Assembly: GCA_965112155.1 (NCBI GenBank)
Contig: OZ218105.1
DNA length: 64,000 bases
Source of the DNA: Podarcis liolepis
Taxonomy: Eukaryota
Reading direction: 5' to 3' (one strand)
A program made the position numbers and the translations under genes. Under the pieces are notes generated by a model that ran no database searches, was not told the origin of the DNA, and worked only from the letters and a program-made list of their open reading frames with translations. Shown here in pieces: positions 25,982 to 26,029 of this stretch (its first letter is position 1; every line of letters begins with the position of its first letter).

Positions 25982-26029
25982 ATGAAGCAATTTCCCCCAT
26001 TTGCAATCAGAATCTGGATATCAGAATGA
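25982..26029 (+). other. uORF MKQFPPFAIRIWISE* whose stop overlaps the JARID2 ATG
   Basis: ATG at 25982, 15 sense codons, TGA at 26027-26029 overlapping the main ATG at 26026-26028 (ATGA). Translation is not shown. Confidence 0.7.

Follow-up and report, generated by a model that had tools for sequence, protein, structure and literature searches.

Overlapping upstream open reading frames (uORFs) typically repress, and the main ORF is reached via leaky scanning, as set out in the available part of the Sherlock review (PMC10275272), which adds that reinitiation may be favoured by short spacing as long as factors remain bound. Conserved overlapping uORFs of vertebrate regulatory genes are in a different frame from the main ORF, which is again reached by leaky scanning (accessible portions of PMC7889888 and PMC10275272); Zhang 2021 (PMC7889888), in the same portions, describes uORF start codons as constrained, with <1% of uORFs encoding conserved peptides, such that the position of the start is kept as length and peptide drift. 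In the V3 leader of TP53BP1, the human and zebrafish uORFs differ in length, end 15 nt from the main AUG and repress the main start, with a strong uAUG context and downstream initiation shown by reporters (PMC10193022, available sections). The ATF4 and GCN4 leaders have a very short upstream element followed by an out-of-frame uORF reaching the main start (PMC10275272, PMC13338717, available text). Start-stop elements have no elongation step, and human JARID2, which encodes a cofactor of PRC2 (PMC6356158, in part), is a named carrier of one in the accessible text of two reports (bioRxiv 10.1101/2021.07.26.453809; PMC13338717). Finally, the TURBS-driven termination-reinitiation of caliciviruses and influenza B uses an AUGA or UAAUG overlap, follows a long ORF and requires a structured element that pairs with 18S rRNA (PMC10275272, available part).

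The JARID2 leader described here lies in a 64,000-nucleotide stretch of Podarcis liolepis DNA (the window), and the features of the leader given below are on its + strand. A uORF of 15 codons in frame +1 occupies positions 25982–26029; its ATG (25982–25984) opens a frame that reads MKQFPPFAIRIWISE and closes with TGA at 26027–26029, the TG of which is common to the stop and to the JARID2 ATG at 26026–26028. Both the coordinates and the AUGA overlap given in the initial annotation are thus confirmed from the sequence. The gene at 26026 is JARID2: the coding part of exon 1, MSKERPKRNIIQKKY (26026–26070), is followed directly by a GT donor at 26071, and exon 2, about 95 kb downstream (G000:C8:60756990), is identical to Lacerta agilis Jumonji at 46 of 46 residues. 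The region of the uORF is a CpG island and has a single match in the 1.57-Gb genome. The context of the uAUG is weak (taattcATGa, with U at −3 and A at +4), whereas the main AUG has A at −3 (and A at +4), as do both other uAUGs of the leader, at 25657 and 25772. Leaky scanning, one of the routes suggested initially, is supported as the natural way to the main AUG.

The 5′ leader (25561–26025) is seen whole and unspliced in X15, a contig of RNA-library origin from another species, which is <90% identical to the window, spans 25561–26071 without a joint and then runs into exon 2 sequence; therefore the uORF is an AUG-to-stop frame within the mature leader, as in repressive AUG uORFs. X15 came from the one informative run of four, X16, X17 and X19 being uninformative. 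No change inside the uORF appears among the X15 differences listed (40 of 59 substitutions and 12 of 23 indels, ending before the uORF), and depth over 25960–26059 shows no deletion, with about six inserted letters unplaced. Two further uAUGs, which like the weak context go unmentioned in the initial annotation, lie within the leader. A start-stop, ATGTAA, at 25657–25662 (−369) is 319 nt upstream of the uORF and recurs as GATGTAA at −374 in a fish-like contig, L002, described below; X15 keeps its AUG and has lost its stop. A three-codon uORF, MNL*, at 25772–25783 (−254) is aligned with an AUG in L002, and its start is lost in X15 (G>T). Three more AUGs are seen further upstream in the window, at 24958, 25247 and 25416 (a start-stop, MQPE* and MI*, respectively).

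Positions 181–186 of human NM_004973, which we take to lie about 385 nt before the human main AUG, would match window 25657, and on that assumed placement of the human coding sequence the start-stop at 25657–25662 is probably the counterpart of the translated 6-nt uORF of human JARID2. That element (NM_004973:181-186) was reported to be translated >3-fold better than the CDS in human cells and is the only uORF listed for the JARID2 leader, with no 48-nt frame, in the available parts of Ji 2015 (PMC4739776). The start-stop is better supported by outside data than is the −44 uORF itself.

A pattern scan for exon 1 gave one match among metagenome contigs (L002, an orthologous exon 1) and none among viral or genome contigs, and a protein search at 23–74 aa gave no candidate. 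We regard L002 as fish-like because its upstream translation nearly matches, by eye, that of the goby Knipowitschia record P0006. An 8-mer that holds the uAUG, AATTCATG (25977–25984), is identical in L002 at −51 to −44, placing the uAUG at −46 there compared to −44 in the window. None of 5000 shuffles had AATTCATG within 5 nt of its place, and any AUG within 2 nt of −44 was seen in 6.5% of shuffles. Two of the three AUGs in the window leader sit in blocks of at least 7 nt common to L002 (binomial p 0.02); these blocks hold 41 of 498 triplet starts, and p ranges from 0.004 to 0.04 over four settings, with the tolerance set after the fact. The tetranucleotide GGAT (26016–26019, at −10 to −7) is also common to both. 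Five of the seven lizard-fish shared blocks contain no AUG. Blocks of this type, which lie in the same order in L002 and are possible binding sites, include ACGTGAC, GGATTTAT, AAGGAGGATT and GGGGATTT; non-AUG blocks occupy window 25595–25601, 25861–25881 and 25941–25948. The frame opened by the L002 uAUG is MWPFSL*, with 6 codons in frame +2 and a stop at −26; its context is weak, like that of the window, its peptide is different, and it does not overlap the main start.

As DNA, the uAUG is known from two sequences, the window and L002, with no mammalian DNA in the comparison, and its wider history was traced through protein records that extend upstream of the usual Met. Among 123 proteins, 108 start at that Met, and 14 clusters have at least 3 upstream residues when a further protein search is included (of its 16 proteins, the unrelated P0137 was discarded, 9 begin at the Met itself and P0004 was a duplicate). 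All five lizard-like clusters (P0001–P0004 and P0124, P0003 being the Lacerta agilis record) have IHEA 16 residues before Met, which, with CAT as the His codon, would put an AUG at −44; the clusters give peptides rather than DNA, such that His could be CAC, and the lizard-like proteins were retrieved via this same stretch, a bias towards kept spacing. Six fish-like clusters have either IHVA (at −44, −44 and −47), which fixes CA, or SCGH (at −46, −49 and −49), which fixes TG, and the two frames combined spell CA+TG. Thus all 11 non-amphibian clusters that extend far upstream have IH[EV]A or SCGH between −44 and −49. The start codon is kept beyond background in the two DNA sequences, with peptide traces in the 11 clusters, as in repressive uORFs. 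The initial annotation had guessed at amniote-wide conservation; the L002 DNA, together with the six further fish-like and five lizard-like protein clusters, makes the uAUG look older than that. This pattern, in which the position of the start is kept and length and peptide drift, is that of the uORFs described by Zhang 2021 (PMC7889888, available text).

Conservation of the uORF peptide, also proposed initially, is not supported. The upstream residues force 3, 3 and 4 changes among the 15 uORF residues in the divergent lizard-like clusters P0002, P0004 and P0124, as compared to 2, 3 and 5 in the main frame, and because these counts are so alike there is no codon-phase preference; in the goby-like P0006 and P0007, 10 of 15 residues must change. 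At uORF codons 4–5, the residues forced by three proteins are compatible with the L and S of the same-length human frame suggested in the initial annotation. A conserved peptide with an excess of synonymous change, the mark of a CPuORF, was therefore not found, as judged from forced changes in peptides rather than dN/dS. JARID2 is absent from the main text of Takahashi's study of conserved-peptide uORFs.

The overlap with the main start fares no better as a conserved and designed feature. Because JARID2 begins ATG-AGC, any open frame +1 must end on the UGA at 26027–26029, and when the leader was dinucleotide-shuffled and the CDS left as it is (four lengths, 5000 shuffles each), an AUGA-ending uORF arose in 30, 28, 27 and 22% of cases for the last 60, 100, 200 and 465 nt, respectively, or in 15–19% if at least 10 codons were required. 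Frame +1 combined with the ATG-AGC start yields the AUGA overlap as a by-product, and the overlap alone is no evidence of design. Among seven fish-like sequences (L002 included), four have the uAUG in frame +2, making the overlap impossible, and two could overlap; P0131 is compatible with an early stop as in L002. A TURBS-type overlap of the AUGA or UAAUG kind is thus present in the window at chance level and is not conserved in homologues, being impossible in four of the seven fish-like sequences, likely absent from a fifth, and compatible with all five lizard-like clusters. TURBS elements carry UGGGA, a motif complementary to 18S rRNA. The nearest UGGGA in the leader is at −319, with none closer to the uORF stop, the computed fold is unremarkable (z 0.25), and Rfam gave no match at the gathering score and one below it (E 0.39) that we take as chance. 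JARID2 and the viral systems (PMC10275272, available part) have AUGA in common; unlike those systems, which follow a long ORF, JARID2 has no structured 18S-complementary motif shortly upstream of the stop that we could find, and its overlap is not conserved.

The reading that we favour, to which we give a probability of roughly 0.55, is that the uAUG is a weak and old ribosome trap in a leader with multiple uAUGs, bypassed by leaky scanning, and that it acts neither through a peptide nor by coupling stop to start. Of the scanning ribosomes that get beyond the first two uAUGs, most would bypass the −44 AUG by leaky scanning and start JARID2 44 nt later. The few that start at −44 would terminate either at the main AUG or immediately ahead of it, which would leave too little room for a restart; at termination GAA (26024–26026) would be in the P site and TGA in the A site, with no initiator tRNA, and by standard scanning logic such ribosomes would pass or leave the main AUG. 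The output of JARID2 would be trimmed modestly, the trap being the last of three uAUGs (−369, −254 and −44). The fish layout, with its stop 25 nt short of the main AUG, would do the same job, which would account for the position of the AUG being kept with frame, length and peptide left free. Initiation at the uAUG, failure to reinitiate and the fall in output are each likely steps that we infer. The uORF would work like a repressive uORF, and lacks two defining features of TURBS-type elements and one of CPuORFs. Compared to the overlapping uORFs of other vertebrate regulatory genes, which it resembles in being out of frame with a main ORF open to leaky scanning, its overlap is limited to 2 nt and is missing from most fish-like copies, and its translation is putative. 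The uAUG of TP53BP1 V3 is in a strong context with downstream initiation shown by reporters (PMC10193022, available sections), whereas that of JARID2 is weak and known from sequence.

The frame is in none of the lists of translated ORFs that were searched. The uORF is absent among the 221 sORFs of 3–15 aa of Sandmann 2023 (PMC10032668; six supplements, among the matches listed), where two internal JARID2 ORFs are listed, and from a 7,264-ORF table. A CHO Ribo-seq table has the annotated JARID2 CDS only (12 of 14 files searched), the Ruiz-Orera supplements have JARID2 expression rows only (11 of 14 files searched), and an SH-SY5Y table has four JARID2 rows, all on another transcript and none the uORF; the available part of the SH-SY5Y study states that 15 nt around the CDS start were left out. 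A search of the literature on JARID2 and upstream ORFs or AUGs found no paper on the −44 uORF, with the supplements of the largest ORF catalogues, which may hold it, lying outside the search. The two start-stop reports, in their accessible text, say nothing of the −44 uORF. Absence from Ribo-seq lists weighs against strong use, but carries little weight where the frame is short and runs into the main start. The idea that the uORF steers ribosomes to a downstream start for a short JARID2 form is rejected, cleavage being reported in the available part of PMC6356158. Separately, JARID2 exon 2 (L003 1502–1567) contains a frame +1 internal ORF of 21 codons from c.47, which matches in length and place a human internal ORF listed as translated; the human counterpart may derive from an alternative-first-exon transcript. 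A locus on the minus strand of G000:C1 (L004 1353–1596) was considered as a leader-bearing retrocopy and rejected, as it holds exon 2–3 sequence only; it is a decayed fragment of a JARID2 retrocopy, in which exons 2 and 3 are joined and which carries both a frameshift and a stop.

Of the other readings, the one that we weigh most heavily, while still thinking it unlikely, is that AATTCATG is conserved because a protein binds it, as DNA or RNA, with its AUG rarely used, such that the uORF is a passenger. The preponderance of shared blocks without an AUG favours this and counts against a trap, as the conservation of AATTCATG may concern something other than the AUG; the weak context, the chance level of AUGA-ending uORFs in shuffles, the absence from every Ribo-seq list searched and the report of a single JARID2 initiation site in the available part of Al-Raawi (PMC6356158) point the same way. 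Against it are the over-representation of AUGs in shared blocks, with the caveat on tolerance given above, and the ease with which the main-start peak would mask footprints of a frame just 48 nt long that runs up to the main start. A more doubtful possibility is delayed reinitiation of the ATF4 type, in which the −369 start-stop would release rescanning ribosomes that are normally caught at −44 but pass over it when ternary complex runs short, so that stress would raise JARID2. The layout of a short element followed by a uORF is present in both the window and L002, with similar spacing (−369 and −44 vs −374 and −46), resembles ATF4 as described in the available text of PMC13338717, and is in keeping with the strong translation of the human 6-nt uORF; however, the trap AUG stands in a weak context and just 44 nt ahead of the main AUG, and X15 lacks the stop of the start-stop. 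It is equally doubtful that a two-part switch has been kept since the fish-tetrapod split, in which a start-stop near −370 would feed a trap near −45, stress would raise the dose of a Polycomb cofactor, and lizard-like lineages would have stretched the trap onto the start.

Coupled stop-start reinitiation, the alternative route named initially, would have ribosomes that end on AUGA shift by 2 nt and restart at the JARID2 AUG, so that the uORF feeds the main ORF. The geometry permits it, with the P and A site codons as given above, and −44 spacing is found in all five lizard-like clusters and two of the seven fish-like sequences; nonetheless the chance-level overlap, its impossibility in four fish-like sequences, the L002 stop at −26 and the UGGGA, fold and Rfam results make it very unlikely. 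We give still less credence to the view that the main frame rather than the uORF is kept, with initiation at a CUG or AUG at −12 or further up adding N-terminal residues to JARID2. Upstream of the usual start, the main frame has no stop for 79 codons, from 25789 on, as happens in 1.9% of shuffles; an in-frame CTG at 26014–26016 (−12), in a strong context with A at −3 and G at +4, is a possible start of a 4-residue extension; and every one of the 14 clusters that reach upstream, those of fish-like type among them, has Asp at the third codon before Met. Three amphibian records, from Bombina, Ambystoma and Pleurodeles, start with Met at −12 (MDIR, MDTK and MDLK), and the Lacerta agilis record starts at −60. 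Yet P0002 has Pro in place of the CTG, the fish-like sequences have Gly or Trp there with the frame shifted upstream, most proteins start at the usual Met, and the alternative starts are automatic annotations. In the window, TTG (25966–25968) occupies the position of the Met with which P0003 begins, 20 codons ahead of the usual start, and five frog and fish records (P0033, P0040, P0044, P0047 and P0116) have a Met-Met start with a second in-frame AUG before the usual one. The least probable reading is a functional 15-residue peptide that stalls or senses, for which the 15-codon length would have been kept in lizard-like sequences (if His is CAT and no stop intervenes), against which stand the forced changes and the MWPFSL* frame of L002.

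The weak trap thus remains our preferred account of a genuine and probably old uORF that belongs to a familiar kind; the class of mechanism is well known, and the gain is specific to the gene. AUGA overlaps ahead of ATG-A starts require no special explanation. JARID2 is dosage-sensitive in people, and should the −44 AUG work as a trap, variants that remove the AUG or strengthen its context would shift the dose of JARID2 with the protein unchanged. The locus would also offer a natural comparison within one gene, between a uORF that stops on the main start in lizard-like sequences and one that stops before it in fish-like sequences.
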